23,643 nucleotides of DNA, taken from UHGV virus genome UHGV-1377030. One strand, written 5' to 3'. The notes below the pieces were generated by a model. It had not been told where the DNA came from. It saw only the letters and a program-made list of their open reading frames with translations, and did no database searches. The number at the start of each line of letters is the position of its first letter. Position 1 is the first letter of the stretch. The stretch comes from a virus. Of this stretch, positions 1,069 to 16,312 are shown piece by piece. Both the position numbers and the translations under genes were made by a program.

Positions 1069-2368
1069 TCTCCCGCATATTGCCAGCATGGCCTTTAATG
1101 AGCCGCTGATGCTTGAACCCGCCTATGCGCGGGTTTTCTTTTGTGCGCTTGCAGGCCAGCTAGGGATCAGCCGCCTGACGGATGCGGTGTCCGGCGACAG
1201 CCTGACTGCCCAGGAGGCACCCGCGACGCTGGCGTTAGCCGGTGATGGTGACGGACCACGACAGGCCCGCAGTTATCAGGTCATGAACGGCATCGCCGTG
1301 CTGCCGGTGTCCGGTACGCTGGTCAGCCGGACGCGGGCGCTGCAGCCTTATTCGGGGATGACCGGTTACAACGGCATTATCGCCCGTCTGCAACAGGCTG
1401 CCAGTGACCCGATGGTGGACGGCATTCTGCTCGATATGGACACGCCCGGTGGAATGGTGGCAGGGGCATTTGACTGCGCTGACATCATCGCCCGTGTGCG
1501 TGACATAAAACCTGTATGGGCGCTGGCCAACGACATGAACTGCAGTGCAGGTCAGCTGCTTGCCAGCGCCGCCTCCCGGCGTCTGGTCACGCAGACCGCC
1601 CGGACAGGCTCCATCGGCGTCATGATGGCTCACAGTAATTACGGTGCTGCGCTGGAGAAACAGGGCGTGGAAATCACGCTGATTTACAGCGGCAGCCATA
1701 AGGTGGATGGCAACCCCTACAGCCATCTTCCGGATGACGTCCGGGAGACACTGCAGTCCCGGATGGATGCAACCCGCCAGATGTTTGCGCAGAAGGTGTC
1801 GGCATATACCGGCCTGTCCGTGCAGGCTGTGCTGGATACCGAGGCTGCAGTGTACAGCGGTCAGGAGGCCATTGATGCCGGACTGGCTGATGAACTTGTT
1901 AACAGTACCGATGCGATCACCGTCATGCGTGATGCACTGGATGCACGTAAATCCCGTCTCTCAGGAGGGCGAATGACCAAAGAGACTCAATCAACAACTG
2001 TTTCAGCCACCGCTTCGCAGGCTGACGTTACTGACGTGGTGCAAGCGACGGAGGGCGAAAACGCCAGCGCGGCGCAGCCGGACGTGAACGCGCAGATCAC
2101 CGCAGCGGTTGCGGCAGAAAACAGCCGCATTATGGGGATCCTCAACTGTGTGGAGGCTCACGGACGCGAAGAACAGGCGCGCGTTCTGGCAGAAACCCCC
2201 GGAATGACCGTGGAAACGGCCCGCCGCATTCTGGCCGCAGCACCACAGAGTGCACAGGCGCGCAGTGACACTGCGCTGGATCGTCTGATGCAGGGTGCAC
2301 CGGCACCACTGGCTGCAGGTAACCCGGCATCTGATGCCGTTAACGATTTGCTGAACACACCAGTGTAA
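1049..2368 (+). CDS. C: Capsid assembly protease/scaffold, lambda gpC-like (S49/ClpP-like peptidase)
   Basis: GTG at 1049 in frame with the 914..2368 ORF gives MTAELRNLPHIASMAFNEPLMLEPAYARVFF..., the lambda C N-terminus; overlaps the end of B as in lambda. Confidence 0.85.
   Translation: MTAELRNLPHIASMAFNEPLMLEPAYARVFFCALAGQLGISRLTDAVSGDSLTAQEAPATLALAGDGDGPRQARSYQVMNGIAVLPVSGTLVSRTRALQPYSGMTGYNGIIARLQQAASDPMVDGILLDMDTPGGMVAGAFDCADIIARVRDIKPVWALANDMNCSAGQLLASAASRRLVTQTARTGSIGVMMAHSNYGAALEKQGVEITLIYSGSHKVDGNPYSHLPDDVRETLQSRMDATRQMFAQKVSAYTGLSVQAVLDTEAAVYSGQEAIDAGLADELVNSTDAITVMRDALDARKSRLSGGRMTKETQSTTVSATASQADVTDVVQATEGENASAAQPDVNAQITAAVAAENSRIMGILNCVEAHGREEQARVLAETPGMTVETARRILAAAPQSAQARSDTALDRLMQGAPAPLAAGNPASDAVNDLLNTPV
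1763..2368 (+). CDS. nu3: Scaffolding protein Nu3-like, nested in-frame within the 3' part of C
   Basis: In-frame ATG at 1763 (MDATRQMFAQKVS...) sharing the C stop codon; matches the known lambda arrangement where Nu3 is translated from an internal start in C. Confidence 0.6.
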   Translation: MDATRQMFAQKVSAYTGLSVQAVLDTEAAVYSGQEAIDAGLADELVNSTDAITVMRDALDARKSRLSGGRMTKETQSTTVSATASQADVTDVVQATEGENASAAQPDVNAQITAAVAAENSRIMGILNCVEAHGREEQARVLAETPGMTVETARRILAAAPQSAQARSDTALDRLMQGAPAPLAAGNPASDAVNDLLNTPV

Positions 2369-2377
2369 GGGATGTTT

Positions 2378-2710
2378 ATGACGAGCAAAGAAACCTTTAC
2401 CCATTACCAGCCGCTGGGCAACAGTGACCCGGCACATACGGCAACCGCGCCCGGCGGATTGAGTGCGAAAGCGCCTGCAATGACCCCGCTGATGCTGGAT
2501 ACCTCCACCCGTAAGCTGGTTGCGTGGGATGGCACCACCGACGGTGCTGCCGTTGGCATTCTGGCGGTTGATGCTGACCAGACCAGCACCACGCTGACGT
2601 TCTACAAGTCCGGCACGTTCCGTTATGAGGATGTGCTCTGGCCGGAGGCTGCCAGCGACGAGACGAAAAAACGGACCGCGTTTGCCGGAACGGCAATCAG
2701 CATCGTTTAA
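2378..2710 (+). CDS. D: Head decoration protein, lambda gpD-like
   Basis: [27 protein letters not shown]...[10 protein letters not shown] matches lambda gpD; ATG at 2378 is the conserved start within the 2372..2710 ORF. Confidence 0.9.
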
Positions 2711-2728
2711 CTTTACCCTTCATCACTA

Positions 2729-2752
2729 AAGGCCGCCTGTGCGGCTTTTTTT
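2729..2752 (+). terminator. GC stem-loop followed by a T-run between D and E (terminator-like / RNA-stability hairpin)
   Basis: gccgc-ctgt-gcggc stem-loop (2732..2745) followed by ttttttt (2746..2752). Confidence 0.4.
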
Positions 2753-2766
2753 ACGGGATTTTTTTT

Positions 2767-3042
2767 ATGTCGATGTACACAACCGCCCAGCTGCTGGCGG
2801 CAAATGAGCAGAAATTTAAGTTTGATCCGCTGTTTCTGCGTCTCTTTTTCCGTGAGAGCTATCCCTTCACCACGGAGAAAGTCTATCTCTCACAAATTCC
2901 GGGACTGGTAAACATGGCGCTGTACGTTTCGCCGATTGTTTCCGGTGAGGTTATCCGTTCCCGTGGCGGATCCACCTCTGAATTTACGCCGGGATATGTC
3001 AAACCCAAGCACTTAGCATGGCTTTCTGAGGCTTTCGTGTAG
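2767..3042 (+). pseudogene. E: Major capsid protein E, 5' fragment truncated by the island insertion
   Basis: MSMYTTAQLLAANEQKFKFDPLFLRLFFRESYPFTTEKVYLSQ...TPGYVKPKH matches the lambda gpE N-terminus up to about nt 3012; the frame then reads 10 unrelated codons (LAWLSEAFV) and stops at 3042. The rest of E resumes at 13730. Confidence 0.85.
3002..3011. repeat. Left copy of 10-bp direct repeat (putative attL core)
   Basis: aacccaagca; identical copy at 13728..13737. Lambda-homologous E sequence ends here. Confidence 0.55.
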
Positions 3043-3139
3043 TTGCTGGTTTTTACACTTAATCTTTTGATAATAAAGAATAAATTTATCTGGCGCTTTC
3101 ACTGAATTTTCCTCGTTATCTGTGTGTTGCAATCATCTC

Positions 3140-3160
3140 TGTATTGCAGCTTGTATTGCT
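3140..3160. repeat. Tandem direct repeat tgtattgcagc / tgtattgct (putative integrase arm-type sites, left end)
   Basis: tgtattgcagc (3140..3150) and tgtattgct (3152..3160); a near-identical pair occurs at 13632..13652 in the same orientation. Confidence 0.45.
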
Positions 3161-3174
3161 TTTTGGGGCTAAAA

Positions 3175-4410
3175 ATGGCTGGCGAGAACAAACTGAGCGA
3201 CAAAGCGCTTAAAGGATATCTGGGGAAACCCAGAGAAAAGCAGATCACCATTGCTGATGGAAAGGGGCTTTCTATTCGTGTGAGTACTAAAGGGGCTGTG
3301 AGCTTTGTTTTCTTCTACAGGTTAGCAGGTGGCCGGGCTGCTCCGGTCTGGCTAACGTTGGGTAAATATCCTGATATGTCACTCAAACAGGCAAGGGAAA
3401 AGCGCGACGAGTGCCGTGGTTGGTTGGCTGACAAACGTGATCCGCGTATCCAGATTAAGATTCAGGCTGAAGAACGCTTAAAGCCGGTCACAGTGGAGGA
3501 TGCACTAAATTACTGGTATGAAAATTACTGTAAGGTGCGTCGTAAAACTCATGCTGTAACGCTTGGCAGATTTCGAAAGCATATCTTTCCCTATATCGGT
3601 CATTTGCCCGTAAATGACACTCACCTATATGAATGGCTGGACTGTTTTGACCGAATTAAACGTAATGCACCAGTTATGGCGGCGTATGTTTTTTCTGACA
3701 CTAAATTAGCTCTTCGTTTTTGTCGGGTACGCCAGTACGCGACGTGTGATGCTTTAAAGGATTTGCGCATGAGTGATGTGGGGCAGATTGCAGGTAAGCG
3801 GGATCGGGTTCTGGATGAAGCCGAACTCGGCCAGCTCTGGAAGGCAATTTTTGTCGAGCCTGATTTAAAACTAATGTCTGAATACACGCGAAAAATGTTT
3901 GTGCTTTGTACAGTATTTGGATGTCGAATGAGTGAAGCCCGATTATCAGAATGGAGCGAATGGGATCTCGAAAGTTGGGTTTGGACTGTACCAAAAGATC
4001 ACTCAAAAACTGGTGTTGAAATCGTCAGACCAGTACCTGAAATTCTACGACAGTGGGTAACGGATGTTCACGAAGAGACAAAACATACTGGTTATGTGCT
4101 GGGAAGTCTGCGAATTAGAGAAAGCGTAAGCAAGATTGGGGGGAAAATCGGTAAACGTTTGGGCCATGAAAAACAATGGTCACTACACGACCTTAGAAGA
4201 ACGCTATCTACTCATCTAAGTGATCTCGGTGTTGAATTTTATGTAGTAGAACAACTGTTAGGCCATGCGCTACCTGGCGTGGCAGGTGTTTACAACCGGA
4301 GTAAGTTTATGGCTAAAAAACTGGATGCTCTGGAACTCTGGACTACATATCTCAATAGCATCGCAGGTGCTGATTCAAAAGTGACGATCCTCAAACAAAA
4401 GGTTGGTTAA
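3175..4410 (+). CDS. int: Tyrosine recombinase / integrase, P4-type (N-terminal arm-binding domain plus catalytic domain)
   Basis: ATG at 3175 (MAGENKLSDKALKGYLG...) in the 3124..4410 ORF. N-terminus resembles the P4-like integrase arm-binding domain (DGKGLSIRVSTKGAVSFVFFYRLAG...LGKYPDMSLKQAREKRDE); the C-terminus carries HDLRRT, LLGHA and a VYNRS tyrosine region typical of tyrosine recombinases. Start at 3124 is an alternative. Confidence 0.85.
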   Translation: MAGENKLSDKALKGYLGKPREKQITIADGKGLSIRVSTKGAVSFVFFYRLAGGRAAPVWLTLGKYPDMSLKQAREKRDECRGWLADKRDPRIQIKIQAEERLKPVTVEDALNYWYENYCKVRRKTHAVTLGRFRKHIFPYIGHLPVNDTHLYEWLDCFDRIKRNAPVMAAYVFSDTKLALRFCRVRQYATCDALKDLRMSDVGQIAGKRDRVLDEAELGQLWKAIFVEPDLKLMSEYTRKMFVLCTVFGCRMSEARLSEWSEWDLESWVWTVPKDHSKTGVEIVRPVPEILRQWVTDVHEETKHTGYVLGSLRIRESVSKIGGKIGKRLGHEKQWSLHDLRRTLSTHLSDLGVEFYVVEQLLGHALPGVAGVYNRSKFMAKKLDALELWTTYLNSIAGADSKVTILKQKVG

Positions 4411-4411
4411 C

Positions 4412-4639
4412 ATGAAAAAAATGGCAATTGTTGATAAAAAGGGTCTGGAGTACATTCCTAACATTGACCGAATGATCCGTGAGAAAGAATGTCGGGAGCT
4501 AACCACTCTTGCGAACAGCACACGCTGGAAGCTGGAGAAGGAAGGAAAATTTCCTAAGCGGATCAAGATTGGTTCCACTGCTGTTGCATATCGTCTTTCA
4601 GAAGTGCAGGCATGGATTCGAGGTGAGTGGGTAGTTTAA
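4412..4639 (+). CDS. alpA: AlpA-like phage transcriptional regulator / excisionase-like HTH protein
   Basis: MKKMAIVDKKGLEYIPNIDRMIREKECRELTTLANSTRWKLEKEGKFPKRIKIGSTAVAYRLSEVQAWIRG; short MerR/AlpA-type HTH protein immediately after int with tight spacing (int stop 4408..4410, ATG 4412). Confidence 0.75.
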   Translation: MKKMAIVDKKGLEYIPNIDRMIREKECRELTTLANSTRWKLEKEGKFPKRIKIGSTAVAYRLSEVQAWIRGEWVV

Positions 4640-4664
4640 ATTATCTCAGAATAAAATATTATGA

Positions 4665-4700
4665 ATTACTGATTTGAGAATTTGTACTCAAATCAGTAAT
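4665..4700. terminator. Perfect 14-bp inverted repeat hairpin between convergent genes (bidirectional terminator candidate)
   Basis: attactgatttgag (4665..4678) and ctcaaatcagtaat (4687..4700) with an 8-nt loop, in AT-rich context between the alpA stop and the stop of the minus-strand membrane protein gene. Confidence 0.5.
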
Positions 4701-4708
4701 AACATTCT

Positions 4709-5245
4709 TTATAAGAGATTAAATCCAAATAAAGAGTAATCATATACCGGGGTGCATTGCATTCCACTGAATATGCTGATGTTTTTTTCTGTTTCTATCC
4801 TTTTTTCAATAAGTTGTTGTATATTTTTACAGTACAATTTGTGTGTGATGTTATTATCGTAAGCCTGATATAGCAACGTCAATGTTGACGCTAGGAAACA
4901 TACAGATAAAATTAAAATAATATATGCAGTTTTTTTATTTTTTGTCCATGATCTATTTGTTTGTGAAATATAAAGAATTCTGAGGTGGATAATGGTGAGA
5001 GACAATAGCAGGCCACTCAATAAAATAAGTATTGGGTTTGCGTATTTTATTAATGGTTGAGAGCAAAAAACTATTATAGCTCCTGTGACTGCGTATGAGA
5101 AAAAGGAGTAATTAAACTTCTTACTCCTTCTCTCAAGTATTTTAATTTCATCTTGTGTGGGGGTTTTAGATGCCTCTAATATAAGTTTATTGAATGTTTC
5201 TGTTATCTTGTTTTTTGTGTTTGTGGCTATTTTTTTTAGATTCAT
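4709..5245 (-). CDS. Hypothetical membrane protein (about 3 predicted TM helices), AT-rich cargo gene
   Basis: 178-aa ORF with hydrophobic stretches (FFSYAVTGAIIVFCSQPLI, ILILLSGLLLSLTIIHLRILYI, AYIILILSVCFLASTLTLLY), a GGGAG-like SD upstream, and strongly AT-rich codon usage unlike its neighbours. No family recognised. Confidence 0.5.
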   Translation of the reverse strand: MNLKKIATNTKNKITETFNKLILEASKTPTQDEIKILERRSKKFNYSFFSYAVTGAIIVFCSQPLIKYANPILILLSGLLLSLTIIHLRILYISQTNRSWTKNKKTAYIILILSVCFLASTLTLLYQAYDNNITHKLYCKNIQQLIEKRIETEKNISIFSGMQCTPVYDYSLFGFNLL

Positions 5246-5559
5246 AGCATTCTAACTCCCTTAACTTATTTATTACTTTCTCTTTATGATAAGAGAGGGG
5301 AATGACTTGGTAAAGTGATTTGTCATTAATAATGATAATCCTTGCGATAAATATTTCTGCAAGTTATTTATCTGTTTGTTGCTATCTTGTTAAGCGTTGG
5401 GTGTGGTTTATATTTGGAGCGACTTTATTTAATCGTGATTTTATGGATTTATATTTATATCCTGTAAGATAAGCGCATGTTAGTTTAGGAGTAGTGTCAG
5501 ATAAAATTATTCGGAGTAGAACTACCTTTTCTGTTTATTGCCAGTATTTACATAGCAAT

Positions 5560-5586
5560 GCGCCGTAGTTACTCACATCACGGCGC
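5560..5586. terminator. Stem-loop downstream of the minus-strand regulator gene
   Basis: gcgccgt (5560..5566) pairs with acggcgc (5580..5586); lies just 3' of the stop of the 5596..5898 gene on its strand. Confidence 0.3.
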
Positions 5587-5595
5587 TGATACTAA

Positions 5596-5898
5596 TTATT
5601 CAGATTCTTTGGCTTTACGCCGCTGGAGTTCTTCACGAGCGACGGCTACGAGTTGCCCGATTTCCTCCGCTGCCTTGATGCCGATTTGTTCGACCTTAGC
5701 TAAGGCATCCAGTGAAGACACGAGGGGATTTTCTCCGCTTCCTTCTGCCTGGCGGCGGGCGATCTCACCGCGCATGGCGGTTACTATGAATCCGGCGTTG
5801 CTTTCGCCGTCCAGTTTTACGGATTCCATGCCCTCCATAACATCGTGGGGAACCCTGATCGTTGTCATTTGCGATTTTGCATTTTTGTATACAGACAT
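5596..5898 (-). CDS. Putative small transcriptional regulator (repressor-like; possible ribbon-helix-helix N-terminus)
   Basis: 100-aa ORF divergent from the replication operon. N-terminal MTTIRVPHDVMEGMES resembles the beta-strand of RHH (Arc/CopG-like) DNA-binding proteins. The start could instead be the internal Met at 5868. Confidence 0.45.
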   Translation of the reverse strand: MSVYKNAKSQMTTIRVPHDVMEGMESVKLDGESNAGFIVTAMRGEIARRQAEGSGENPLVSSLDALAKVEQIGIKAAEEIGQLVAVAREELQRRKAKESE

Positions 5899-5914
5899 AG
5901 TTAATCACCAATTT

Positions 5915-6025
5915 GTTATGTGTATATCACTATACACAAAAGTGAGATATAAAAACACTTGCAATGTATATCACCACAATATAATGTATATCTCACATTA
6001 TGGTCGCTATGTATCTCACAATGAT
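5915..6025. promoter_or_regulatory. Divergent promoter/operator region with four direct copies of TGTATAT(C)TCAC-like motif plus an inverted copy
   Basis: tgtatatcac (5921..5930), tgtatatcacc (5965..5975), tgtatatctcac (5985..5996), tgtatctcaca (6009..6020) and inverted gtgagatat (5942..5950), all within the 208-bp gap between divergent genes. Confidence 0.5.
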
Positions 6026-6106
6026 CGATTCATAAAAACGACGAAACCCGGCAGTGCGCGAACACTAACCGGGCTTCTAACCAAACCGTTAAACGAGGTA
6101 ACTATT

Positions 6107-6472
6107 ATGGCTGGAACACAGCATACCCAAACTCACCCTAAATTTATATACATCTTTCTGGCGCTACATCGCGATCGCATAGCAGATGGAGCAACTACGG
6201 TACATGTAGCCGCTGACACGCTGGTTGATGCCCGCAAGATGGTTAAGGAGATGGGCTATACTGCGGCTTTCTGGAAAGGGCGGGAAGAAAACACGCTGTT
6301 TATTCAGAAATGTGAAAACAATTTCCTCTGGCGTTTTATCGCCCTGAGTACGACACAACCGCGCGTGATTACCATCGAGGCCACCAGCGAACAGGAAGCC
6401 CGCCAGCAATCCCCAACTGGCTGCGTGATGATATTCGCCGCCCGTATTCGTCAGGAGGTGTGCCATGAATGA
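6107..6472 (+). CDS. Hypothetical protein (first gene of island early/replication operon)
   Basis: ATG at 6107 preceded by a GAGGT SD; the longer 5558..6472 ORF would run antisense through the regulator gene, so it is trimmed. No family recognised. Confidence 0.5.
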   Translation: MAGTQHTQTHPKFIYIFLALHRDRIADGATTVHVAADTLVDARKMVKEMGYTAAFWKGREENTLFIQKCENNFLWRFIALSTTQPRVITIEATSEQEARQQSPTGCVMIFAARIRQEVCHE

Positions 6473-6689
6473 TCTTTATTTTAAAGTGCTGACACATGCT
6501 GAAAACGCGCTCGTTTGTGGCAAAAATATGCGAGAAATCTTATCAACCTGGCTTGATGGGACAACAAATGCGGAACACGATGAACGGGATGCTAATTTAG
6601 CTGGAGCGTTAATTACGTTACTTGATCCTGTCATCAAAGAGCTGGATGAAGCTATAAAAATACACGATCAGAGCTATACCGAAGAATAA
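6465..6689 (+). CDS. Hypothetical protein
   Basis: 74-aa ORF; its ATG overlaps the upstream stop (ATGA coupling) and is preceded by an AGGAGG SD. Confidence 0.5.
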   Translation: MNDLYFKVLTHAENALVCGKNMREILSTWLDGTTNAEHDERDANLAGALITLLDPVIKELDEAIKIHDQSYTEE

Positions 6690-6691
6690 AA

Positions 6692-6979
6692 ATGAAAAAT
6701 AAATTTTCTGGCTTTATTGCTAGCGGTCAAGCTCATTCAAAAATCAGCCTTGGGGATATTTTCAAAGATAGCTATGGCTATCGGGTAAAGATTATTTCGG
6801 TTGATGATCGCCGTGTCCCTTATTTGCGTGATGGTTATGATTTTGAATGTGTTATGCCGCGTCAGCAGTTCGAAAGAGATTTCATTCTGGTAAAAAATTG
6901 CAAGACAGATAATCAGAGGCGTGCCGCAGGCTATATCCGCAAAATTCGGGCAATGTTAGTTGCCGGAGGTAATAAATGA
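6692..6979 (+). CDS. Hypothetical protein
   Basis: 95-aa ORF starting 3 nt after the previous stop; operon context. Confidence 0.45.
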   Translation: MKNKFSGFIASGQAHSKISLGDIFKDSYGYRVKIISVDDRRVPYLRDGYDFECVMPRQQFERDFILVKNCKTDNQRRAAGYIRKIRAMLVAGGNK

Positions 6980-7158
6980 AACGTGCTCCGAACTTAAAAT
7001 ACCAACCGCGCGACAAAATGACAGAAGTCATCATTTTTGCTGGCAGTGATGCCTAGAGCCATGCAAAAGAATGGAATGAATGGGCGGGTAAGCATATTGC
7101 AGCAGATGATACACCACCAGTAATTCTGGGTACGGAACAACTGGAAAACCTGGATGAT

Positions 7159-8796
7159 ATGCAAATTATCGATGAAGGCCGTCATTATGTGCGTGTTTAT
7201 CGTGCCGGAAAGATTGCAGAGAAAAATCTGACGAAGGTTGCGACATTACTTGCTATTGCAGGCGTAAAGGAAGCACGTTGTTACCGTAGCTTTGTTGATC
7301 GAGAGCCTGAAGACTGGACTCCGCGCCTTGTCGGCCTAAAAGCTGAAGCGGAGCATGGGGAAAGTCTGGTGATTGAACTGCCAGTGAAGAAGGCTGAGCG
7401 CAAAAATGACGAGCGTGCTTCATCTTTGGCGTTGAATCAGATGGGGGCCAGCCAGCGCGGTGAAGTTCTCCTTGCACATTACGGCGGCGAACTGGCAATC
7501 AATGCCGACTCTGACACCGTTCATCATTACAACGGCGTTGTATGGGAGCCGGTTCAGGATAAAGAGTTACAGCGTGCTATGGCGCAGATTTTCATTGATG
7601 CGGAGATCAGCTATTCGCAGAACGCTATTAAATCGGCGGTAGATACCATGAAGTTAAGTTTGCCTGTAATGGGGAATACAGCCCGTAACCTGATTGGATT
7701 CAGTAACGGGGTATTTGATACCAGAACTGGTAATTTTCGGGAGCATAACAAAAACGACTGGTTGTTAATTGCCAGTGAATTACCTTTCAGCCCACCAGCA
7801 GAGGGGGAAACGCTGGCAACACATGCGCCGAATTTCTGGAAGTGGTTGCGCCGTTCGGTGGCTGAGAATGACCGCAAGGCAGATCGCGTACTGGCGGCAT
7901 TATTCATGGTGCTGGCGAACCGGTACGACTGGCAGTTATTCATTGAGGTAACAGGGCCGGGGGGAAGTGGTAAAAGTGTGATGGCGGAGATTTGCACCAT
8001 GCTGGCGGGTAAGGCTAATACAGTATCAGCAAGCATGAAGGCGCTGGAAGATGCAAGGGAACGTGCGTTAGTGGTTGGCTTTTCGCTGATTATCATGCCG
8101 GATATGACCCGCTACGCTGGTGATGGGGCAGGGATTAAGGCCATTACAGGCGGTGACAAGGTGGCAATTGACCCGAAACACAAAGCCCCCTATTCAACGC
8201 GTATTCCGGCAGTAGTGCTGGCGGTTAACAATAACGCCATGTCATTCAGTGACCGCAGCGGGGGGATCTCACGTCGTCGGGTGATATTCAATTTTTCGGA
8301 AGTTGTACCGGAGAACGAACGCGATTCGATGCTGGCGGAAAAAATAGAAGGTGAGCTGGCGGTAGTGATTCGTCATCTGCTTACAAGGTTTGCTGATCAG
8401 GACGAAGCCAGACGCCTGTTATATGAGCAGCAGAAATCTGAAGAAGCACTGGCGATAAAGCGAGAGGGGGATTCGCTGGTGGACTTCTGCGGTTATCTCA
8501 TGGCATCGGTAATGTGTGATGGCCTGTTAGTGGGTAATGCTGAAATTGTGCCATTCAGCCCACGCAGGTATCTCTATCATGCCTATCTGGCTTATATGAG
8601 GGCACATGGGTTTGGTAAACCTGTAACACTGACGCGCTTCGGTAAAGATATGCCGGGGGCAATGGCGGAATATGGCAGGGAGTATATGAAACGGAAAACG
8701 AAGCACGGTTTGCGTTCAAACGTGACCCTGACGGAGGAATCAGAAGACTGGATGCCATCATGTGTATCGGTCACTAATGACGATAGCAAAAATTAA
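7159..8796 (+). CDS. Phage/plasmid primase-helicase, P4 alpha-like (D5 N-terminal-like region plus SF3 P-loop NTPase)
   Basis: Walker A GPGGSGKS in TGPGGSGKSVMAEICTMLAG, a downstream hydrophobic-acidic Walker B-like stretch (LVVGFSLIIMPDM), and overall resemblance to satellite/PICI primase-replicase proteins. Gene is followed directly by an iteron array. Confidence 0.8.
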   Translation: MQIIDEGRHYVRVYRAGKIAEKNLTKVATLLAIAGVKEARCYRSFVDREPEDWTPRLVGLKAEAEHGESLVIELPVKKAERKNDERASSLALNQMGASQRGEVLLAHYGGELAINADSDTVHHYNGVVWEPVQDKELQRAMAQIFIDAEISYSQNAIKSAVDTMKLSLPVMGNTARNLIGFSNGVFDTRTGNFREHNKNDWLLIASELPFSPPAEGETLATHAPNFWKWLRRSVAENDRKADRVLAALFMVLANRYDWQLFIEVTGPGGSGKSVMAEICTMLAGKANTVSASMKALEDARERALVVGFSLIIMPDMTRYAGDGAGIKAITGGDKVAIDPKHKAPYSTRIPAVVLAVNNNAMSFSDRSGGISRRRVIFNFSEVVPENERDSMLAEKIEGELAVVIRHLLTRFADQDEARRLLYEQQKSEEALAIKREGDSLVDFCGYLMASVMCDGLLVGNAEIVPFSPRRYLYHAYLAYMRAHGFGKPVTLTRFGKDMPGAMAEYGREYMKRKTKHGLRSNVTLTEESEDWMPSCVSVTNDDSKN

Positions 8797-8804
8797 ACTT
8801 ATGG

Positions 8805-9040
8805 AATAACTGTTCACCACTGTTCACCCTGTCATAAATATCTTTTATATCAGTATATTATAGGGTGAACAGTTATTTATGAACTGTTCACCAAACTATT
8901 CACTGTTCACCTTTTTGATTGTTTATTGAGCTTCAAGGGTGAACAGTGGTGAACAGTTGGTGAATAGTTTTTGTGAAACTGTTCACCCATTAACATTATG
9001 AATTAAAAGAGAAAATATCAAAAGGTGAACAGGTGAAGGG
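8805..9040. repeat. Iteron array, putative island replication origin
   Basis: About 10 copies of CTGTTCACC or its complement GGTGAACAG in both orientations: 8810..8818, 8820..8828, 8864..8872, 8884..8892, 8903..8911, 8938..8946, 8948..8956, 8959..8967 (degenerate), 8979..8987, 9024..9032, in AT-rich non-coding DNA just 3' of the helicase gene. Confidence 0.65.
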
Positions 9041-9083
9041 TTAAAACGCAAAAATTTTAATTTACTGCTGTGAGATAAAGCCT

Positions 9084-9329
9084 ATGACAGCGAAGCACAC
9101 AAAAAAATCACAATCGCACGCCCTTGATTTGACGGAACACTGGTTAAGGGTGTCGATAAAAATCATCGACCGCAACGCCGGGGAAGGATACGCGAAAGCA
9201 CATCCCGAACTGATTAGCGCATTCATGACAACGGCGGCTGCAAACTTTGCCACTCTGACCGAACGGGAGATTGCTGAAGCGGAGGAAGTGACAACAATCA
9301 ATATTAAGTCCGGAGAGCAGGCAGCATGA
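9084..9329 (+). CDS. Hypothetical protein
   Basis: 81-aa ORF; its stop overlaps the start of the next gene (ATGA). Weak SD. Confidence 0.4.
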   Translation: MTAKHTKKSQSHALDLTEHWLRVSIKIIDRNAGEGYAKAHPELISAFMTTAAANFATLTEREIAEAEEVTTINIKSGEQAA

Positions 9330-9775
9330 CGGCGCAAATATCAGTTTACGGGCGGTTGGTGGACGACCCGCAGACAAAACAGACCAGCAAGGGCACCCCC
9401 ATGACGCTGGCGCGTATGGCGGTATCACTGCCCTGCAGTCAGTCGGATGACGGTCAGGCGACGATGTGGTTATCTGTCCTGGCGTTTGGCAGACAAGCCG
9501 ACGCGCTGGCAAAGCATCACAAAGGCGAACTCCTGAGCGTGGCGGGTAATATGCAGGTGAGCCAGTGGACTGGACAGAACGGTGAAACGCGGCAGGGCTG
9601 GCAGGTTATCGCAGACAGCGTAATCAGTGCGCGAACGGTGCGACCGGGCGGCAAAAAAGGTCAACAGGGTCAGGCTACTGACGCACTGAACAGAGCAAAA
9701 CAACAGGCAGATCAGCAAGGAAGCCATCCACCAGTGGGAGATAATGAGCAATGGGGAGATGATATTCCGTTTTAA
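9326..9775 (+). CDS. Single-stranded DNA-binding protein-like (divergent SSB with acidic C-terminal tail)
   Basis: 149 aa ending in ...EQWGDDIPF, the characteristic SSB C-terminal tail (DDDIPF); a Gly/Gln-rich linker precedes it. Confidence 0.6.
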   Translation: MTAQISVYGRLVDDPQTKQTSKGTPMTLARMAVSLPCSQSDDGQATMWLSVLAFGRQADALAKHHKGELLSVAGNMQVSQWTGQNGETRQGWQVIADSVISARTVRPGGKKGQQGQATDALNRAKQQADQQGSHPPVGDNEQWGDDIPF

Positions 9776-9783
9776 ATATTGCC

Positions 9784-9808
9784 AATAAAAAAGGCCGGAA
9801 AAAAATAA
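9784..9808. other. Palindromic hairpin after the SSB-like gene
   Basis: gccggaaaa-aaataaa-ttttccggc perfect palindrome; terminator or operator, function unclear. Confidence 0.3.
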
Positions 9809-9992
9809 ATTTTCCGGCATGCTACATAAATCCCGACCAAAGGGAGTGAAGATATTAACACTAATTATCCGCGCTGGAGTTGTTATCCCAAAACTTTATA
9901 CAACATTGCACTCGGTTGCATGTATTCGCATGACAAATATCGGTGATAGCATATATCCACAATTATTTTTAATGAATGCAAAGAGGATGCGT

Positions 9993-11033
9993 ATGGTTGA
10001 TTTATATTCGCCTACCCAGCTTGTACAGGTGGTTAATGCTGTAGATGTACAAAAACAACTAAATGCGTTGTTTACCAGTTTGTTTTTTACTCGCTCGGTA
10101 ATGTTTGAATCGCGCGATATTATTCTTGATACAATCGACGATCCAAATATCCCAATTGCAGCGTTTTGTTCTCCTATGGTAGGTAGTAAAGTTTCACGTG
10201 ACGAAGGGTACGAATCAAAAACAATTCGTCCAGGCTATATGAAGCCGAAAAGCAGCATTGATCCAAATAAGTTAGCTGTGCGCCCTGCTGGTGTATCACC
10301 TGAGCAATACAATGCTTTTGGAGCGCGTAATATTAAAGTTAAACAGGCGATTGTAAATCAGGCTAAAGCTATTCGTGCACGTATTGAATGGTTTGCCGTT
10401 CAGGCAATCACAACGGGGAAAAATATCATTGAGGGCGATGGTATTGAACGTTATGAGCTGGACTGGAATATAAAACCACAAAATATCATCACTCAGTCTG
10501 GCGGTACTGAGTGGTCAGGTAAGGATAAAGAAACTTTTGATCCAAATGATGATATTGAGAGCTACGCAGAATTTAGTGAGGGCGTCACTAATATCATCAT
10601 TATGGGCGGTAATGTATGGAAGAAATACCGTTCATTCAGAGCGATAAAAGAGGCTCTGGATACCCGTCGTGGTTCTAATTCCGAACTGGAAACGGCCCTT
10701 AAAGACCTTGGTGATTCGGTGAGTTTTAAAGGGTATATGGGCGATGTTGCGATTGTTGTATACAGCGGGCGTTATACCGACGAGGACGGAACTGAAAAAC
10801 ATTTCCTTGATCCTGATTTGATGGTGCTTGGCAATACGGCTCTTCAGGGGATTGTCGCCTATGGCGGTATTCAGGATCCGGAGCTAATCCGAATGGGGCT
10901 GACTAAAGCCGAACTTGCACCGAAAAACTATATTGTGCCTGGTGATCCGGCTATTGAATATGTGCAGACACATTCAGCACCACAGCCAATACCGGCCCGC
11001 ATCAATCGTTTTGTTACCGTTCGCATTGGCTAA
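9993..11033 (+). CDS. Island-encoded major capsid protein homologue (lambda gpE-like, full length)
   Basis: ATG at 9993 with an AGAGGA SD 5 nt upstream. MVDLYSPTQLVQ... aligns with the gpE N-terminus, and the C-terminal half is clearly homologous (ITQSGGTEWS, LDTRRGSNSELETA, GDVAIVVYSG, MVLGNT, GDPA), visible even at nucleotide level. Confidence 0.85.
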   Translation: MVDLYSPTQLVQVVNAVDVQKQLNALFTSLFFTRSVMFESRDIILDTIDDPNIPIAAFCSPMVGSKVSRDEGYESKTIRPGYMKPKSSIDPNKLAVRPAGVSPEQYNAFGARNIKVKQAIVNQAKAIRARIEWFAVQAITTGKNIIEGDGIERYELDWNIKPQNIITQSGGTEWSGKDKETFDPNDDIESYAEFSEGVTNIIIMGGNVWKKYRSFRAIKEALDTRRGSNSELETALKDLGDSVSFKGYMGDVAIVVYSGRYTDEDGTEKHFLDPDLMVLGNTALQGIVAYGGIQDPELIRMGLTKAELAPKNYIVPGDPAIEYVQTHSAPQPIPARINRFVTVRIG

Positions 11034-11042
11034 GGGGGAGCA

Positions 11043-11384
11043 ATGGCTACTCATTACACTGAACTCATGGCTGGCACTGAAGCACTGGTGACTACGCTGG
11101 GGATATTTTCAGCTAATAAAGGGGTAATTCCTGCATTTACGCCACTGATGCAGGAAGATGCAACAGGTGCACTGGTGGTATGGGATGGTTCGAGCGTAGG
11201 TAAAGCGGTTTATGTTTCCGCTGTACAAATCGACACCGCGAAAAAAACACAGGCTCAGGTCTATAAGACAGGTGTCTTAAATGTTGATGCTCTGAACTGG
11301 CCTGAGTCTGTAAAAGAACTGTCAGTAAAGATTGCAGCGTTTGTTGGCTCAGGTATTTCTGTTCAGCCGCTGGCTCGTGTGTAA
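11043..11384 (+). CDS. Island-encoded head decoration protein homologue (lambda gpD-like)
   Basis: 113 aa with strong SD (AAGGGGGAG). TPLMQEDATGALVVWDGSSVGKAVYVSAVQ...FVGSGISV parallels gp[30 protein letters not shown]...FAGTAISIV; similar length. Confidence 0.7.
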   Translation: MATHYTELMAGTEALVTTLGIFSANKGVIPAFTPLMQEDATGALVVWDGSSVGKAVYVSAVQIDTAKKTQAQVYKTGVLNVDALNWPESVKELSVKIAAFVGSGISVQPLARV

Positions 11385-11395
11385 AGGGGGATACA

Positions 11396-11779
11396 ATGCA
11401 GAATGATTACAATGACCTTAAGCCACTTGCCGAAATGATGTACCCGAATCCAGCTGTAGAGGAATTAAAAGCTATCGCTGACAAAATGTGTTTAAGCGAG
11501 CGCCTTGTTGATATGAATCAGGTGATGGAAATTACAACCCTGAGTCGGCGTACACTGCTAAACCTTGAGGCTAGTGGAGAGTTCCCGGAGCGTGTGCAGG
11601 TTACGGAAGGGCGTAAGGCCTGGTATTTAAGTGAAGTGATCGACTGGATAAATAATATTCCTCGCGCTTCTGAATATTGCCGCGTACCTGTCCCAAAAAA
11701 GCCAGATGCGGCGCTATGCCTCAAGATTGAGCGTGTACGCCGCAATGCACGGGATGGTCGCTATAAGCTGATTGGTTGA
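11396..11779 (+). CDS. Small HTH DNA-binding protein (AlpA/MerR-like winged helix), candidate cos-binding or packaging-redirecting protein
   Basis: 127 aa with strong SD. Central segment MEITTLSRRTLLNLEASGEFPERVQVTEGRKAWYLSEVIDWINN has AlpA-like HTH architecture; gene sits directly upstream of the island cos site. Confidence 0.55.
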   Translation: MQNDYNDLKPLAEMMYPNPAVEELKAIADKMCLSERLVDMNQVMEITTLSRRTLLNLEASGEFPERVQVTEGRKAWYLSEVIDWINNIPRASEYCRVPVPKKPDAALCLKIERVRRNARDGRYKLIG

Positions 11780-11832
11780 TGAAATTAGGGCCCGCTCTGG
11801 CTGGCGGGTCCTTTCCGGCGATCTGACAGGCT

Positions 11833-12000
11833 ACGGGGCGTCAGGCGCGCAGTTTTTTGCTATTTGTGAAAATTTTCCTGTTTAAGGCGTTTCCGTTCTT
11901 CTTCGCCGTAACTTAATGTTTTTATTAAAAACACCCCCTAAAAAGAAAGGAAACGACAGGTGCTAAAAACAGGCTTTTTGGCCTCTGTCGTTTCCTTTCT
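11833..12000 (+). other. Lambda-type cos site carried by the island (cosN-like plus cosB R3, I1 region, R2, R1)
   Basis: Sequence from ctacggggcg... through gcgtttccgttcttcttcg (R3-like, 11888..11905), agaaaggaaacgacag (R2-like, 11944..11959) and ctgtcgtttcctttct (R1-like, 11985..12000) closely parallels the left end of lambda DNA as I recall it. The R-site region is near-identical; the cosN segment differs at several positions. Confidence 0.75.
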
Positions 12001-12345
12001 CTGGTTTTGTTGCCATCCGTCGCGGTCTATCACCAGAAAAAATCTTATCCCTGAGTTGAATCAGGCCCTATTCAGAAGCGGCCAATAACGCGCCGCTAGC
12101 TTCACTTCATAGTTATGGCCTACTTCTGCGCCATTGCAATTGCTTTATGCGCCTTGATGGTGGAATATAGAGCAAGCAGTTTGCGAATAACAAAGTTTCA
12201 TATGTTTTTTGCTGTGTGGCTAGACAACTTTACAGCAGAGTTTTGTGTCAGTTCTTTATGTGTGCAAGCAAGCTTGAGGGGGAATTACTTCTGGCTGCAT
12301 CTTTGCTTAAGAACAGCAATAATTTAATCATAAGGAAATGTATAT

Positions 12346-12368
12346 AAGCCTGATTAAATTTCAGGCTT
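12346..12368 (-). terminator. Hairpin immediately 3' of the TIR-domain gene
   Basis: aagcctga (12346..12353) pairs with tcaggctt (12361..12368) around a 7-nt loop, 10 nt beyond the gene stop, in AT-rich context. Confidence 0.4.
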
Positions 12369-12377
12369 ATTGAAATG

Positions 12378-13520
12378 TTAACTCCTTATTAGAGAGTAAA
12401 TTCCATCCTCTTTAAGGAAGTCTATTACTTCAAAGAATGAGATAAAGAATTCCCAAGAACCAAAAGCATATGCATGAATTTCGTAAGGTGCAAAATGGAA
12501 TCTAAATCCATCACTATTTATTGTGAACGAGTCTAAGTTACTATCCATGATACCCGTTGCAAACGTACTAATGTCGTCCTCACTTGGTTTTTCACCAGTT
12601 TTCTCCCAAAATTCACGAGCTGATTCAGAGATTATTTTTTGTTTTATCTTATTAATCGCTTCTTGCTCTTTCCCTTCGGTAAATACATCCCATAAACTAA
12701 ATTTGTATGCGTAGTCATCCTTGGTTATTACGAAATTACTAGTTTCAAAATGACTGTTAGGGTGTGCTGCTCCCGCACCATACCAATGTACGGAATGAAG
12801 GATGCTCATAACATTTTCGTTACAGTATGAGATGTTATAACTTTCATTATAGGAACTAGTGTAAGTGTGTTTATATTCTTCATCCCAATATGGTGTTCCT
12901 GGCCATAGTGATGTGCGTTCAGAAAAAATATGTAAAGCCGCTTTTCCTGAAAAGTAATCACTAATGAGTTTTGCTGATTTCGGTAATGTATGGCTTTCAA
13001 TTCTTGGATATGCTATTTCAATTTCATGCCCTGGGATCTTGTTATATTCTTCCTTGAAAACCTCGCTGCTAAAGTTAAATGGCCCATAAGTGATACCTTG
13101 AGATATTTCAAGTTTTTGTTGCGATGCTGCTAATCTTAAAGATCTAGATAAAATGTCCCAACCATCATTTCTCTTAAAATCAATGAATTGGAGCTTGCTT
13201 GATATGTAGGCGGGTACTTCGCAATCATCAATAAGTAATGGTATCACGAACACATCATCTGGTTTGTAATACTTTAGTTTATCAATGGCGTCATTTATTT
13301 CGCGGCGAATATAACCATTTTTCTGAGTGCTCACTTTGCTAAGGATAAGGATTATCAAGTTTGAATTAGCGAAGTTTTTTTGGATTTCATAATCCCAGTT
13401 TACGCCAGCGGGTATATCTTTTACATCCATCCAAGGGGAATATCCTCCACTTTTTAGCCTTTCATAGATTTCTTCAGTTATCGTTTCATCTTCTTTTGCA
13501 TGAGCAAGAAAAATTTTCAT
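12378..13520 (-). CDS. TIR-domain protein with uncharacterised ~240-aa C-terminal domain (candidate anti-phage defence cargo)
   Basis: 380-aa ORF with an AAGGAA SD 6 nt upstream. N-terminus MKIFLAHAKEDETITEEIYERLKSGGYSPWMDVKDIPAGVNW...LIILILSKVSTQKNGYIRREINDAI fits the bacterial TIR pattern (K-I/V-F-L/I-S/A-H/Y start, W at box 2, S-x-x-S...E catalytic-type segment). Strongly AT-rich relative to island and phage genes. Confidence 0.75.
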   Translation of the reverse strand: MKIFLAHAKEDETITEEIYERLKSGGYSPWMDVKDIPAGVNWDYEIQKNFANSNLIILILSKVSTQKNGYIRREINDAIDKLKYYKPDDVFVIPLLIDDCEVPAYISSKLQFIDFKRNDGWDILSRSLRLAASQQKLEISQGITYGPFNFSSEVFKEEYNKIPGHEIEIAYPRIESHTLPKSAKLISDYFSGKAALHIFSERTSLWPGTPYWDEEYKHTYTSSYNESYNISYCNENVMSILHSVHWYGAGAAHPNSHFETSNFVITKDDYAYKFSLWDVFTEGKEQEAINKIKQKIISESAREFWEKTGEKPSEDDISTFATGIMDSNLDSFTINSDGFRFHFAPYEIHAYAFGSWEFFISFFEVIDFLKEDGIYSLIRS

Positions 13521-13631
13521 TGAATATTCCTTTATAATTTAACTAATTAAGTGAAGGAGGCTTTACTTGGCTGTGTTAGAAAAAATTCGGTTTGTTTTTT
13601 GTACGATGCCAAGAAGGCTTTTCCCTAACCA

Positions 13632-13652
13632 TGTATTGCAGCATGTATTGCT
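13632..13652. repeat. Tandem direct repeat tgtattgcagc / tgtattgct (putative integrase arm-type sites, right end)
   Basis: tgtattgcagc (13632..13642) and tgtattgct (13644..13652), matching the pair at 3140..3160. Confidence 0.45.
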
Positions 13653-13727
13653 ACGTAATTCTGCACCCTCTCATTTATAAAATAAATCTCTGTTAAATCA
13701 AGTATCTTTTTTCTATTTGACTCATGT

Positions 13728-13737
13728 AACCCAAGCA
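13728..13737. repeat. Right copy of 10-bp direct repeat (putative attR core)
   Basis: aacccaagca; lambda E-homologous sequence resumes exactly here. Confidence 0.55.
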
Positions 13738-14518
13738 TGAGGTGAATCCGCAGATGACCCTGCGTCGCCTGCCGGATGAAGATCCGCAGAATCTGGCGGA
13801 CCCGGCTTACCGCCGCCGTCGCATCATCATGCAGAACATGCGTGACGAAGAGCTGGCCATTGCTCAGGTCGAAGAGATGCAGGCCGTTTCTGCCGTGCTT
13901 AAGGGCAAATACACCATGACCGGTGAAGCCTTCGATCCGGTTGAGGTGGATATGGGCCGCAGTGCGGCGAATAACATCACGCAGTCCGGCGGCACGGAGT
14001 GGAGCAAGCGTGACAAGTCCACGTATGACCCGACCGACGATATCGAAGCCTACGCGCTGAACGCCAGCGGTGTGGTGAATATCATCGTGTTTGATCCGAA
14101 AGGCTGGGCGCTGTTCCGTTCCTTCAAAGCCGTCAAGGAGAAGCTGGATACCCGTCGTGGCTCTAATTCCGAGCTGGAGACAGCGGTGAAAGACCTGGGT
14201 AAAGCGGTGTCCTATAAGGGGATGTATGGCGATGTTGCCATCGTCGTGTATTCCGGACAGTACGTGGAAAACGGCGTCAAAAAGAACTTCCTGCCGGACA
14301 ACACGATGGTGCTGGGGAACACTCAGGCACGCGGTCTGCGTACCTATGGCTGTATTCAGGATGCGGACGCACAGCGCGAAGGCATTAACGCCTCTGCCCG
14401 TTACCCGAAAAACTGGGTGACCACCGGCGATCCGGCGCGTGAGTTCACCATGATTCAGTCAGCACCGCTGATGCTGCTGGCTGACCCTGATGAGTTCGTG
14501 TCCGTACAACTGGCGTAA
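13730..14518 (+). pseudogene. E: Major capsid protein E, 3' fragment (continuation of the gene interrupted at about 3012)
   Basis: PKHEVNPQMTLRRLPDEDPQNLADPAYRRRR...DEFVSVQLA matches lambda gpE from about residue 80 to the C-terminus. An in-frame TAA at 13727..13729 precedes it, so the fragment lacks its N-terminal part. Confidence 0.85.
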
Positions 14519-14522
14519 TCGT

Positions 14523-14547
14523 GGCCCTTCGGGGCCATTTTCTCTCT
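14523..14547 (+). terminator. GC stem with tetraloop followed by T-rich tract after E (terminator-like / RNA-stability hairpin)
   Basis: ggccc-ttcg-gggcc (14523..14536) followed by attttctctct. Confidence 0.4.
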
Positions 14548-14559
14548 GTGGAGGAGTCC

Positions 14560-14958
14560 ATGACGAAAGATGAACTGATTGCCCGTCTCCGCTCGCTGGG
14601 TGAACAACTGAACCGTGATGTCAGTCTGACGGGGACGAAAGAAGAACTGGCGCTCCGTGTGGCAGAGCTGGAAGAAGAGCTTGATGACACGGGCGACACT
14701 GCCGGTCAGGATACCCCTCTCAGCCCGGAAAATGTGCTGACCGGGCATGAACATGAGGTGGTATCAGCGCAGCCGGATACCGTGATTCAGGATACGGCTG
14801 AACTGGTCACGGTCGTGGCACTGGTGACGCTGCATACTGATGCACTTCACGCCACGCGGGATGAACCTGTGGCATTTGTGCTGCCGGGAACGGCGTTCCG
14901 TGTCTCTGCCGGTGTGGCAGCTGAAATGACAGAGCGCGGCCTGGCCAGAATGCAATAA
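14560..14958 (+). CDS. FI: DNA-packaging/head assembly protein, lambda gpFI-like
   Basis: ATG at 14560 gives MTKDELIARLRSLGEQLNRDVSLTGTKEELALRVAELEEELDD..., matching lambda FI; GGAGG SD upstream. Confidence 0.85.
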   Translation: MTKDELIARLRSLGEQLNRDVSLTGTKEELALRVAELEEELDDTGDTAGQDTPLSPENVLTGHEHEVVSAQPDTVIQDTAELVTVVALVTLHTDALHATRDEPVAFVLPGTAFRVSAGVAAEMTERGLARMQ

Positions 14959-14969
14959 CGGGAGGCGCT

Positions 14970-15323
14970 GTGGCTGATTTCGATAACCTGTTCGATGCTG
15001 CCATTGCCCGCGCCGATGAAACGATACGCGGGTACATGGGAACGTCAGCCACCATGACATCCGGTGAGCAGTCCGGCGCAGTAATACGTGGTGTTTTTGA
15101 TGACCCTGAAAATATCAGCTATGCCGGACAGGGCGTGCGCGTTGAAGGCTCCAGCCCGTCCCTGTTTGTCCGGACTGATGATGTGCGGCAACTGCGGCGT
15201 GGAGACACGCTGACCATCGGTGAGGAAAACTTCTGGATAGATCGTGTTTCGCCGGATGATGGCGGAAGCTGTCATCTCTGGCTTGGACGGGGCGTACCGC
15301 CTGCCGTTAACCGTCGCCGCTGA
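14970..15323 (+). CDS. FII: Head-tail joining protein, lambda gpFII-like
   Basis: GTG start; MADFDNLFDAAIARADETIRGYMGTSAT... matches lambda FII. Confidence 0.85.
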   Translation: MADFDNLFDAAIARADETIRGYMGTSATMTSGEQSGAVIRGVFDDPENISYAGQGVRVEGSSPSLFVRTDDVRQLRRGDTLTIGEENFWIDRVSPDDGGSCHLWLGRGVPPAVNRRR

Positions 15324-15334
15324 AAGGGGGATGT

Positions 15335-15913
15335 ATGGCCATAAAAGGTCTTGAGCAGGCCGTTGAAAACCTCAGCCGTATCAGCAAAACGGCGGTGCCT
15401 GGTGCCGCCGCAATGGCCATTAACCGCGTTGCTTCATCCGCGATATCGCAGTCGGCGTCACAGGTTGCCCGTGAGACAAAGGTACGCCGGAAACTGGTAA
15501 AGGAAAGGGCCAGGCTGAAAAGGGCCACGGTTAAAAATCCGCAGGCCAGAATCAAGGTTAACCGGGGGGATTTGCCCGTAATAAAGCTGGGTAACGCGCG
15601 GATTGTCCTGTCCCGACGCAGGCGTCGTAAAAAGGGGCAGCGTTCAGCCCTGAAAGGTGGCGGCAGCGTGCTTGTGGTGGGAAACCGTCGTATTCCCGGC
15701 GCGTTTATTCAGCAACTGAAAAATGGCCGCTGGCATGTTATGCAGCGTGTGGCCGGGAAAAACCGTTACCCCATTGATGTAGTGAAAATCCCGATGGCGG
15801 TGCCGCTGACCACGGCGTTTAAACAAAATATTGAGCGGATACGGCGTGAACGTCTTCCGAAAGAGCTGGGCTATGCGCTGCAGCATCAACTGAGGATGGT
15901 AATAAAGCGATGA
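15335..15913 (+). CDS. Z: Tail completion protein, lambda gpZ-like
   Basis: MAIKGLEQAVENLSRISKTAVPGAAAMAINRV... matches lambda Z. Confidence 0.85.
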   Translation: MAIKGLEQAVENLSRISKTAVPGAAAMAINRVASSAISQSASQVARETKVRRKLVKERARLKRATVKNPQARIKVNRGDLPVIKLGNARIVLSRRRRRKKGQRSALKGGGSVLVVGNRRIPGAFIQQLKNGRWHVMQRVAGKNRYPIDVVKIPMAVPLTTAFKQNIERIRRERLPKELGYALQHQLRMVIKR

Positions 15914-16305
15914 AACATACTGAACTCCGTGCAGCCGTACTGGATGCACTGGAGAAGCATGACACCGGGGCGACGCTTTTTGATGGTCGCCCCGCTGTTT
16001 TTGATGAGGCGGATTTTCCGGCAATTGCCGTTTATCTCACCGGCGCTGAATACACGGGCGAAGAGCTGGACAGCGATACCTGGCAGGCGGAGCTGCATAT
16101 TGAAGTTTTCCTGCCTGCTCAGGTGCCGGATTCAGAGCTGGATGCGTGGATGGAGTCCCGGATTTATCCGGTGATGAGCGATATTCCGGCACTGTCAGAT
16201 TTGATCACCAGTATGGTGGCCAGTGGCTATGACTACCGACGCGACGATGATGCGGGCCTGTGGAGTTCAGCCGATCTGACGTATGTCATTACCTATGAAA
16301 TGTGA
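15910..16305 (+). CDS. U: Tail terminator protein, lambda gpU-like
   Basis: [43 protein letters not shown]... matches lambda U; ATGA overlap with the Z stop. Confidence 0.85.
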
Positions 16306-16312
16306 GGACGAT

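Follow-up and report, generated by a model that had tools for sequence, protein, structure and literature searches.

Layout of the island and of the interrupted capsid gene

The UHGV virus genome UHGV-1377030, a stretch of 23,643 nucleotides that is referred to here as the window, represents the late region of a lambda-type prophage and carries portal, S49 protease, D, E, FI, FII, Z, U, V, G/T, H, M, L, K, I, and J genes. Its major capsid gene E is split by an island of foreign DNA that features an integrase gene of its own. The island is arranged in the order int, alpA, an AT-rich zone, an Icd-like gene, small genes, the primase/helicase gene pri, iterons, ssb, homologues of E and D, a gene for a helix-turn-helix (HTH) protein, a cos-like site, and a TIR-domain gene (Table 1). 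It is co-oriented with the late operon, as int, alpA, and pri all lie on the strand of that operon. An initial annotation of the window, made from the letters of the DNA alone, had read the island as a phage satellite inserted in its helper phage's capsid gene.

The interruption of E is sharply defined. The gene starts with an ATG at 2767, stays lambda-like as far as ...TPGYVKPKH, and gives way to unrelated DNA from 3012; the E sequence picks up again at 13728/13738 and ends at 14518. The course described in the initial annotation, with an E frame that is lambda-like to ...GYVKPKH, then foreign DNA, and then resumed E, is thereby confirmed. The 5' part of E is now fused to a short run of island sequence with a stop codon at 3040-3042, and the predicted product is a stub of 91 aa. 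E is not expressible until the satellite excises.

The insert is bounded by a 10-bp direct repeat, AACCCAAGCA, which had been recognised at the outset and which spans codons K79-H82 of E. Exactly two copies are present in the 23.6-kb window, with zero further matching bases on either side, and the insert between them measures 10,716 bp. It had been noted that deletion of the insert together with one repeat copy gives back an intact E frame, and joining 2767-3011 to 13738-14518 in silico indeed yields an open reading frame (ORF) of 1026 nt and 341 codons. The rejoined gene aligns with lambda E (J02459.1 6135-7160) at 98.7% identity over 100% of its length and in a single piece, as expected of the clean insertion of about 10.7 kb that had been proposed. 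It is also a 100% match to the uninterrupted major capsid gene of Escherichia coli LST200A, whose prophage encodes portal, protease, and D proteins with the same RefSeq accessions as those of the AR_0013 prophage, the closest one to the window. Positions 1-3011 and 13728-16711 of the window align to neighbouring stretches of the LST200A prophage, and the overlap of these two alignments is exactly the 10-bp core. For breakpoints set independently by homology, the chance probability of such a 10-bp overlap is about 4^-10. Additionally, the insert is poorer in GC (0.31-0.52) than the flanks (about 0.58). Taken together, these alignments support the reading of the insert as a site-specific integration at the 10-bp core inside the helper capsid gene E.

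Table 1. Features of the island and of the two fragments of helper gene E, with positions in the window
Feature	Position	Strand	Basis
Helper E, 5' fragment (codons 1-81 + 2 nt)	2767..3011	+	Reading frame; Prokaryotic Genome Annotation Pipeline (PGAP) on identical stretch: 'major capsid protein, missing C-terminus'
attL core AACCCAAGCA (identity block common with attR)	3002..3011	+	Repeat search of window; block tabulated for the site group in PMC10111431 supplement
Doubled motif TGTATTGCagctTGTATTGC, presumed arm-type site	3140..3159	+	Begins 133.5 bp downstream of core centre; same sequence in NRG857c
Tyrosine integrase (int), P4-type architecture, 411 aa	3175..4410	+	Pfam Arm-DNA-bind_3, Phage_int_SAM_3, Phage_integrase
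AlpA-family regulator/excisionase	4412..4639	+	Pfam Phage_AlpA, E = 3e-15; coordinates from PGAP annotation of identical island
Hypothetical 178-aa protein, apparently hydrophobic, in AT-rich stretch (GC 0.31-0.33)	4709..5245	-	ORF
YlcI/YnfO-family small protein	5596..5898	-	PGAP name; phrog_6522, E = 2e-61
Icd-like protein; C-terminal 50 aa match 'transcriptional repressor' PHROG	6107..6472	+	PGAP name; phrog_6196, phrog_1743
Small conserved gene, phrog_2196 member	6465-6689	+	PHROG
DUF4222 protein	6692-6979	+	Pfam/PHROG
Primase/helicase pri	6976..8796	+	Pfam D5_N, DUF5906, Pox_D5
Putative replication origin (ori), nine iterons CTGTTCACC/GGTGAACAG, both orientations	8797..9035	.	Directly 3' of pri
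Small conserved gene, phrog_1231	9084-9329	+	PHROG
Single-strand DNA-binding protein (ssb)	9326-9775	+	Pfam/PHROG
Island's own major capsid E homologue, 346 aa, full length	9993..11033	+	Pfam Phage_cap_E, E = 8e-41
Island's own head decoration D homologue	11043..11384	+	Pfam HDPD; 38% identical to helper D (BLASTP)
Second AlpA-like winged-HTH protein, 127 aa, directly upstream of cos-like site	11396..11779	+	Pfam Phage_AlpA; phrog_2790; PDB 8c3t (AlpA-family)
cos-like packaging site, 205 bp	11805..12009	+	88% identical to helper prophage cos region
Cargo: TIR-domain + DUF3298 protein, 380 aa	12378..13520	-	Pfam TIR_2, E = 3e-21, and DUF3298
Doubled motif TGTATTGCagcaTGTATTGC, presumed arm-type site	13632..13651	+	Finishes 81.5 bp upstream of core centre
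attR core AACCCAAGCA	13728..13737	+	Repeat search of window
Helper E, 3' fragment (codon 82 onward, ...HEVNPQ... to stop)	13738..14518	+	PGAP: 'major capsid protein, missing N-terminus'

Identity as a helper-embedded satellite

The insert is almost certainly a helper-embedded phage-inducible chromosomal island (HE-PICI; the wider class is abbreviated PICI) of the published E:Phage_cap_E:80 group, closely related to the type element Eco567.11capE (11capE). The latter was described by Tommasini, Mageeney and Williams (NAR Genom Bioinform 2023; PMC10111431) as an 11-kb PICI within a prophage of E. coli NRG857c, where it sits in, and is co-oriented with, the lambda-type capsid gene E, is bounded by a 10-bp attL/attR identity block, and encodes a capsid homologue of its own. 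The same authors named the configuration HE-PICI and the site E:Phage_cap_E:80, and catalogued 491 helper-embedded PICIs, 201 of them at the E site. Moreover, the island of the window is 100% identical to that of AR_0013, which is listed in Supplementary File 1 of PMC10111431 as Eco10186.11.E_Phage_cap_E_80 (CP032204.1/5242183-5231458, identity block aacccaagca). The view of the initial annotation that this attachment target was undescribed for phage satellites is therefore wrong. The element was already known, and the window represents one further instance of it and not a discovery.

The resemblance to the type element extends over most of the island, as window positions 3012-12010 are 97-99% identical to 11capE at the nucleotide level. 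Both elements have the same target gene, 10-bp core, orientation, and spacing of the doubled motifs, and both follow the gene order int-alpA-...-pri-ori-ssb-capsid E-D-HTH-cos. They differ in the cargo, which in 11capE is a pair of HEPN and DUF262 (NsnA/PD-T4-2-like) genes and in the window a TIR-DUF3298 gene, and in pri, which is intact in 11capE whereas it carries a nonsense codon (W27*) in the window. The surroundings also differ, with a 50-kb icd prophage around 11capE versus a DLP12-type remnant at tRNA-Arg in the nearest relatives of the window. Furthermore, the island has the structural features that define Gram-negative PICIs. At 10.7 kb it falls within their range of 10-20 kb, its genes run mostly in one direction, and it carries int, alpA, pri, and ori iterons downstream of pri. 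It is without terminase or lysis genes, its virion genes are limited to homologues of E and D, and its cos is of helper type at the sequence level. The iteron copies of the putative origin span 8810-9032, and this placement agrees with the location of ori downstream of pri in Gram-negative PICIs (Fillol-Salom et al., PMC6092414, PMC6739421). Nothing contradicts the HE-PICI classification. Islands that are 100.0% or 99.9% identical to that of the window are found in six genomes.

A further copy was noticed in E. coli IAI39 (NC_011750.1), whose island is 100% identical but lacks the first 487 bp, and so is without attL and the 5' part of int. It looks like a truncated and immobilised copy.

The integration module is equally close to that of the type element. 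The P4-type integrase and AlpA placed by the initial annotation just inside the left end are both recognised by their Pfam domains. The integrase is identical to the 11capE integrase of NRG857c at 409 of 411 residues and was assigned to the HE-PICI clade by this pairwise comparison. According to PMC10111431, only HE-PICIs have a doubled motif, tgTGTATTGCantgTGTATTGCa, whose copies lie 81 +/- 2 bp upstream of the attP centre and 132 +/- 2 bp downstream of it. Doubled TGTATTGC motifs flank the core of the window on both sides at these published positions; a motif search found no other doubled TGTATTGC copy, and one more match to TGTATTGC is situated at 10304 on the minus strand. Comparison of the window with NRG857c shows that the attR arm has kept the doubled motif and its final ~20 bp, whereas the stretch separating them has diverged, which is the pattern expected of functional sites. 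The doubled motifs are presumed to be arm-type binding sites, and it was presumably the P4-type tyrosine integrase that made the insertion.

Whether this integrase is always flanked by E, a question raised together with the original reading, was addressed in 5,426 complete E. coli genomes, of which 176 have the integrase gene (>=95% nucleotide identity) and 173 the E attL junction. Essentially every integrase copy is located in E. This census relied on the integrase gene and on the attL junction as probes, since the attR junction found just 16 genomes because the right arm and the cargo vary. An uninterrupted E-type gene occurs in more than 3,100 of the same genomes, which excludes the possibility, also raised by the initial annotation, that the split E is universal and lacks any empty site.

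The behaviour of such a composite has been followed in NRG857c. After mitomycin C treatment, quantitative PCR and deep sequencing revealed that the whole composite excised precisely and then replicated, and that the satellite itself excised at 2 h, with restoration of the capsid attB and with the excised circle detected (PMC10111431). The proposal that E stays blocked by a site-specific integrant until excision is hence supported by measurements in a relative. By analogy, the prophage and satellite of the window would excise upon induction as one composite and replicate, and the satellite would excise only later and restore E. Helper late read-through transcription and AlpA would drive int and the satellite genes, and the satellite would then replicate from pri and the iteron ori. 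The helper terminase would package it via its own cos into lambda-type particles, while the E and D homologues of the satellite may serve as backup or modifiers.

State of this copy and competing explanations

Several observations weigh against a cycle of this kind, the first of them for the whole E-site group and the others for the present copy. Firstly, infectious helper or satellite particles were not recovered even for 11capE (PMC10111431), and packaging and transfer thus remain inferred for the whole E-site group. Secondly, pri carries a TGG>TAG change at codon 27 (W27*, 7054-7056), whereas the NRG857c orthologue is intact and encodes 606 aa; PGAP likewise reports an 'internal stop' in pri of identical islands. 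Thirdly, the tail gene V (major tail/tail tube; 16313-16972) shows an in-frame deletion of 81 bp, or 27 codons, compared with AR_0013 and LST200A. The deletion lies between 11-bp direct repeats with its junction near 16701-16711, is shared among the best matches by isolate AF57 (OZ546943) only, and probably inactivates the tail tube protein. Finally, the early genes are absent around the nearest relatives. The window aligns with AF57 at 99.3% identity in a single alignment, and the composites of AF57 and AR_0013 are both situated in a DLP12-type remnant next to tRNA-Arg, with only a fragment of an integrase gene and with IS3 copies, and in AR_0013 additionally with a group II intron. No cI, N, O, or P genes are present in the prophage around either composite, and the late region of both remnants is almost complete. 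The nonsense codon, the V deletion, and the missing early genes argue that the composite cannot run the published cycle unaided. With its nonsense codon in pri, and with early genes missing around its closest relatives, the present copy of the HE-PICI is probably impaired or stranded. The chromosomal context of the window itself is deduced from the nearest complete genome at 99.3% identity. If the genome of the window resembles AF57 and AR_0013, the helper in cis would be unable to induce, excise, or replicate alone, in which case the satellite would either depend on a second lambdoid phage or be a fossil.

The latter alternative has nearly, though not quite, an even chance of being correct. 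It accepts the membership in the HE-PICI family and regards this copy as an immobile fossil in a decayed DLP12-type remnant, kept for its TIR gene or by vertical inheritance. The premature stop at codon 27 of pri, the loss of 27 codons from the tail tube gene, and the lack of cI, N, O, and P beside an integrase fragment and IS3 copies at tRNA-Arg in AR_0013 and AF57 all agree with it, and the 100.0% or 99.9% identity of the islands in six genomes is consistent with clonal inheritance. However, int and alpA, the two att cores, the two doubled motifs, the iterons of ori, and the cos site have remained intact. Translation of pri could restart at 7159, and the resulting 545-aa ORF would retain all recognised primase/helicase domains. 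A co-resident or superinfecting lambdoid phage could also provide late activation and virion parts in trans, and the TIGER mapping in PMC10111431 calls the surroundings of the AR_0013 island a 52-kb prophage at a tRNA-Arg gene.

It is very unlikely that the island is instead a capsid-forming PICI (cf-PICI) or a miniature phage, which would build its own heads and obtain only tails from the helper. The island does encode, as cf-PICIs do, a major capsid protein, which is of full length and accompanied by a decoration protein, and its own cos site carries a distinct cosN overhang. In contrast to cf-PICIs, its virion genes are the E and D homologues only; no portal, prohead protease/scaffold, head-tail connector, or terminase gene was found among the island ORFs by Pfam and PHROGs, and the cf-PICI class was rejected. 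Moreover, the PICI EcCICFT073 tolerated deletion of the equivalent capsid and decoration genes, and a PICI capsid knockout left helper-assisted transfer possible (PMC6092414, PMC6739421).

EcCICFT073, which serves as the model of Gram-negative cos PICIs (Fillol-Salom et al. 2018, 2019; PMC6092414, PMC6739421), resembles the island of the window in its size class, in the int-alpA-pri-ori layout, in having capsid E-like and decoration D-like genes of its own, in lacking terS, and in a cos for packaging by the terminase of a lambdoid helper. Unlike the present element, it is integrated in the chromosome away from its helper, and its cosB, which is unlike phage cosB, is read by an Rpp-TerS complex, whereas the island of the window keeps helper-like cosB R-elements and has a changed cosN. 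Redirection of packaging of the Rpp type was considered and rejected on these helper-like R-elements and on the HTH protein, which at the level of sequence matches no solved Rpp. The satellite phage P4 and P4-like elements also have common ground with the island, including the integrase architecture, a regulator of the AlpA family, and a primase/helicase of D5 type, but the helper is of lambda type rather than P2 type and the cos of the island is lambda-like rather than P2/P4-like. With this cos and without any Psu, Sid, or Delta-type gene by Pfam or PHROGs, a P4-like satellite was rejected as well.

Lastly, the idea that the split E is an assembly chimera or a random insertion, of which the former had been named as a danger at the outset, found no support and is refuted by the recurrence of the attL junction in 173 independently assembled complete genomes, the location of the integrase at E in 173 of the 176 genomes that have it, the exactly duplicated 10-bp core with empty sites that match to the base, and the precise excision seen experimentally in a relative (PMC10111431).

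Capsid homologues, cos site, and cargo

The initial annotation overlooked the E and D homologues of the island, its cos site, and the signs of decay in both the island copy and the prophage. The E homologue of the island is 42% identical to the interrupted helper E (BLASTP). It has no att core, with 12 of 24 nt identical at the att-equivalent position, and would therefore offer no target for self-integration. The cos-like site retains the cosB R-elements of the helper type, whereas its cosN (about 11836-11847) shows a 12-nt overhang, GGGCGTCAGGCG, that differs in 5 of 12 bases from the GGGCGGCGACCT of helper and lambda. Since the overhang itself differs, the site surfaced only upon alignment of the whole helper cos region; a search of the island for GGGCGGCGACCT with <=2 mismatches returned only a chance-level match inside pri. 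The GGGCGTCAGGCG variant of cosN is also found in 11capE of NRG857c and is present in ~81 complete E. coli genomes. A shared cos-like segment of 258 bp in 11capE was noted in PMC10111431, where the cosN difference is not mentioned. The HTH protein encoded directly upstream of cos matched 8c3t only when compared with PDB sequences (E <= 1), with no solved Rpp structure among the matches in this sequence-level comparison.

The distinct cosN overhang is the one unexplained feature of the island. An unlikely explanation is that the E and D genes of the satellite, its non-helper cosN overhang, and the disruption of helper E form a single strategy. While the satellite is integrated, its capsid protein would be the only one available, and the first proheads would consist of satellite E and D on the portal and protease of the helper. 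With cohesive ends distinct from those of the helper, the satellite would keep its concatemers and termini apart from helper DNA. If true, the E-site HE-PICIs would represent an intermediate between capsid-stealing and capsid-forming PICIs. The idea of a 'backup copy' was raised only in passing in PMC10111431.

Among the remaining genes, the 178-aa protein next to alpA gave only sub-threshold matches to Pfam and no match to PHROG or PADLOC. A sub-threshold Rfam match to the antitoxin small RNA SymR was noticed at 6040-6112 on the minus strand (35 bits against a gathering threshold of 61, E = 2e-4). It runs antisense to the beginning of the Icd-like ORF (6107-6472) and is the sole relaxed-threshold Rfam match in 4600-7000; it may represent an antisense RNA with a regulatory or immunity function in the dynamic zone of the satellite, or it may be due to chance. 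At gathering thresholds, Rfam gave no match in the whole window, and a P4 CI/C4-type immunity RNA cannot be claimed.

The cargo slot (12011-13716), which adjoins attR, differs from that of 11capE. The TIR-DUF3298 protein encoded here probably serves in anti-phage defence; its matches in PADLOC are confined to the TIR domain, belong to several different systems, and give no full-length system assignment. In NRG857c the same slot holds genes for a HEPN protein and for a DUF262 protein matching NsnA/PD-T4-2_A, and other relatives have DUF2971 or Abi genes in it. The slot next to attR looks like a hotspot for the exchange of defence genes within the E-site HE-PICIs. Defence genes are familiar as PICI cargo from other studies. 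Such cargo was not discussed in PMC10111431.

The additions of the window to the published picture are modest, comprising a TIR defence gene in the slot, an apparently decaying composite, and a satellite cosN unlike that of the helper. The TIR gene in the right-end slot lends support to the idea that defence genes are an exchangeable cargo of these satellites. As already pointed out in 2023 (PMC10111431), by using the essential capsid gene of the helper as its attachment site, the satellite moves and is copied along with the helper in cis, and it gates the helper capsid on its own excision.

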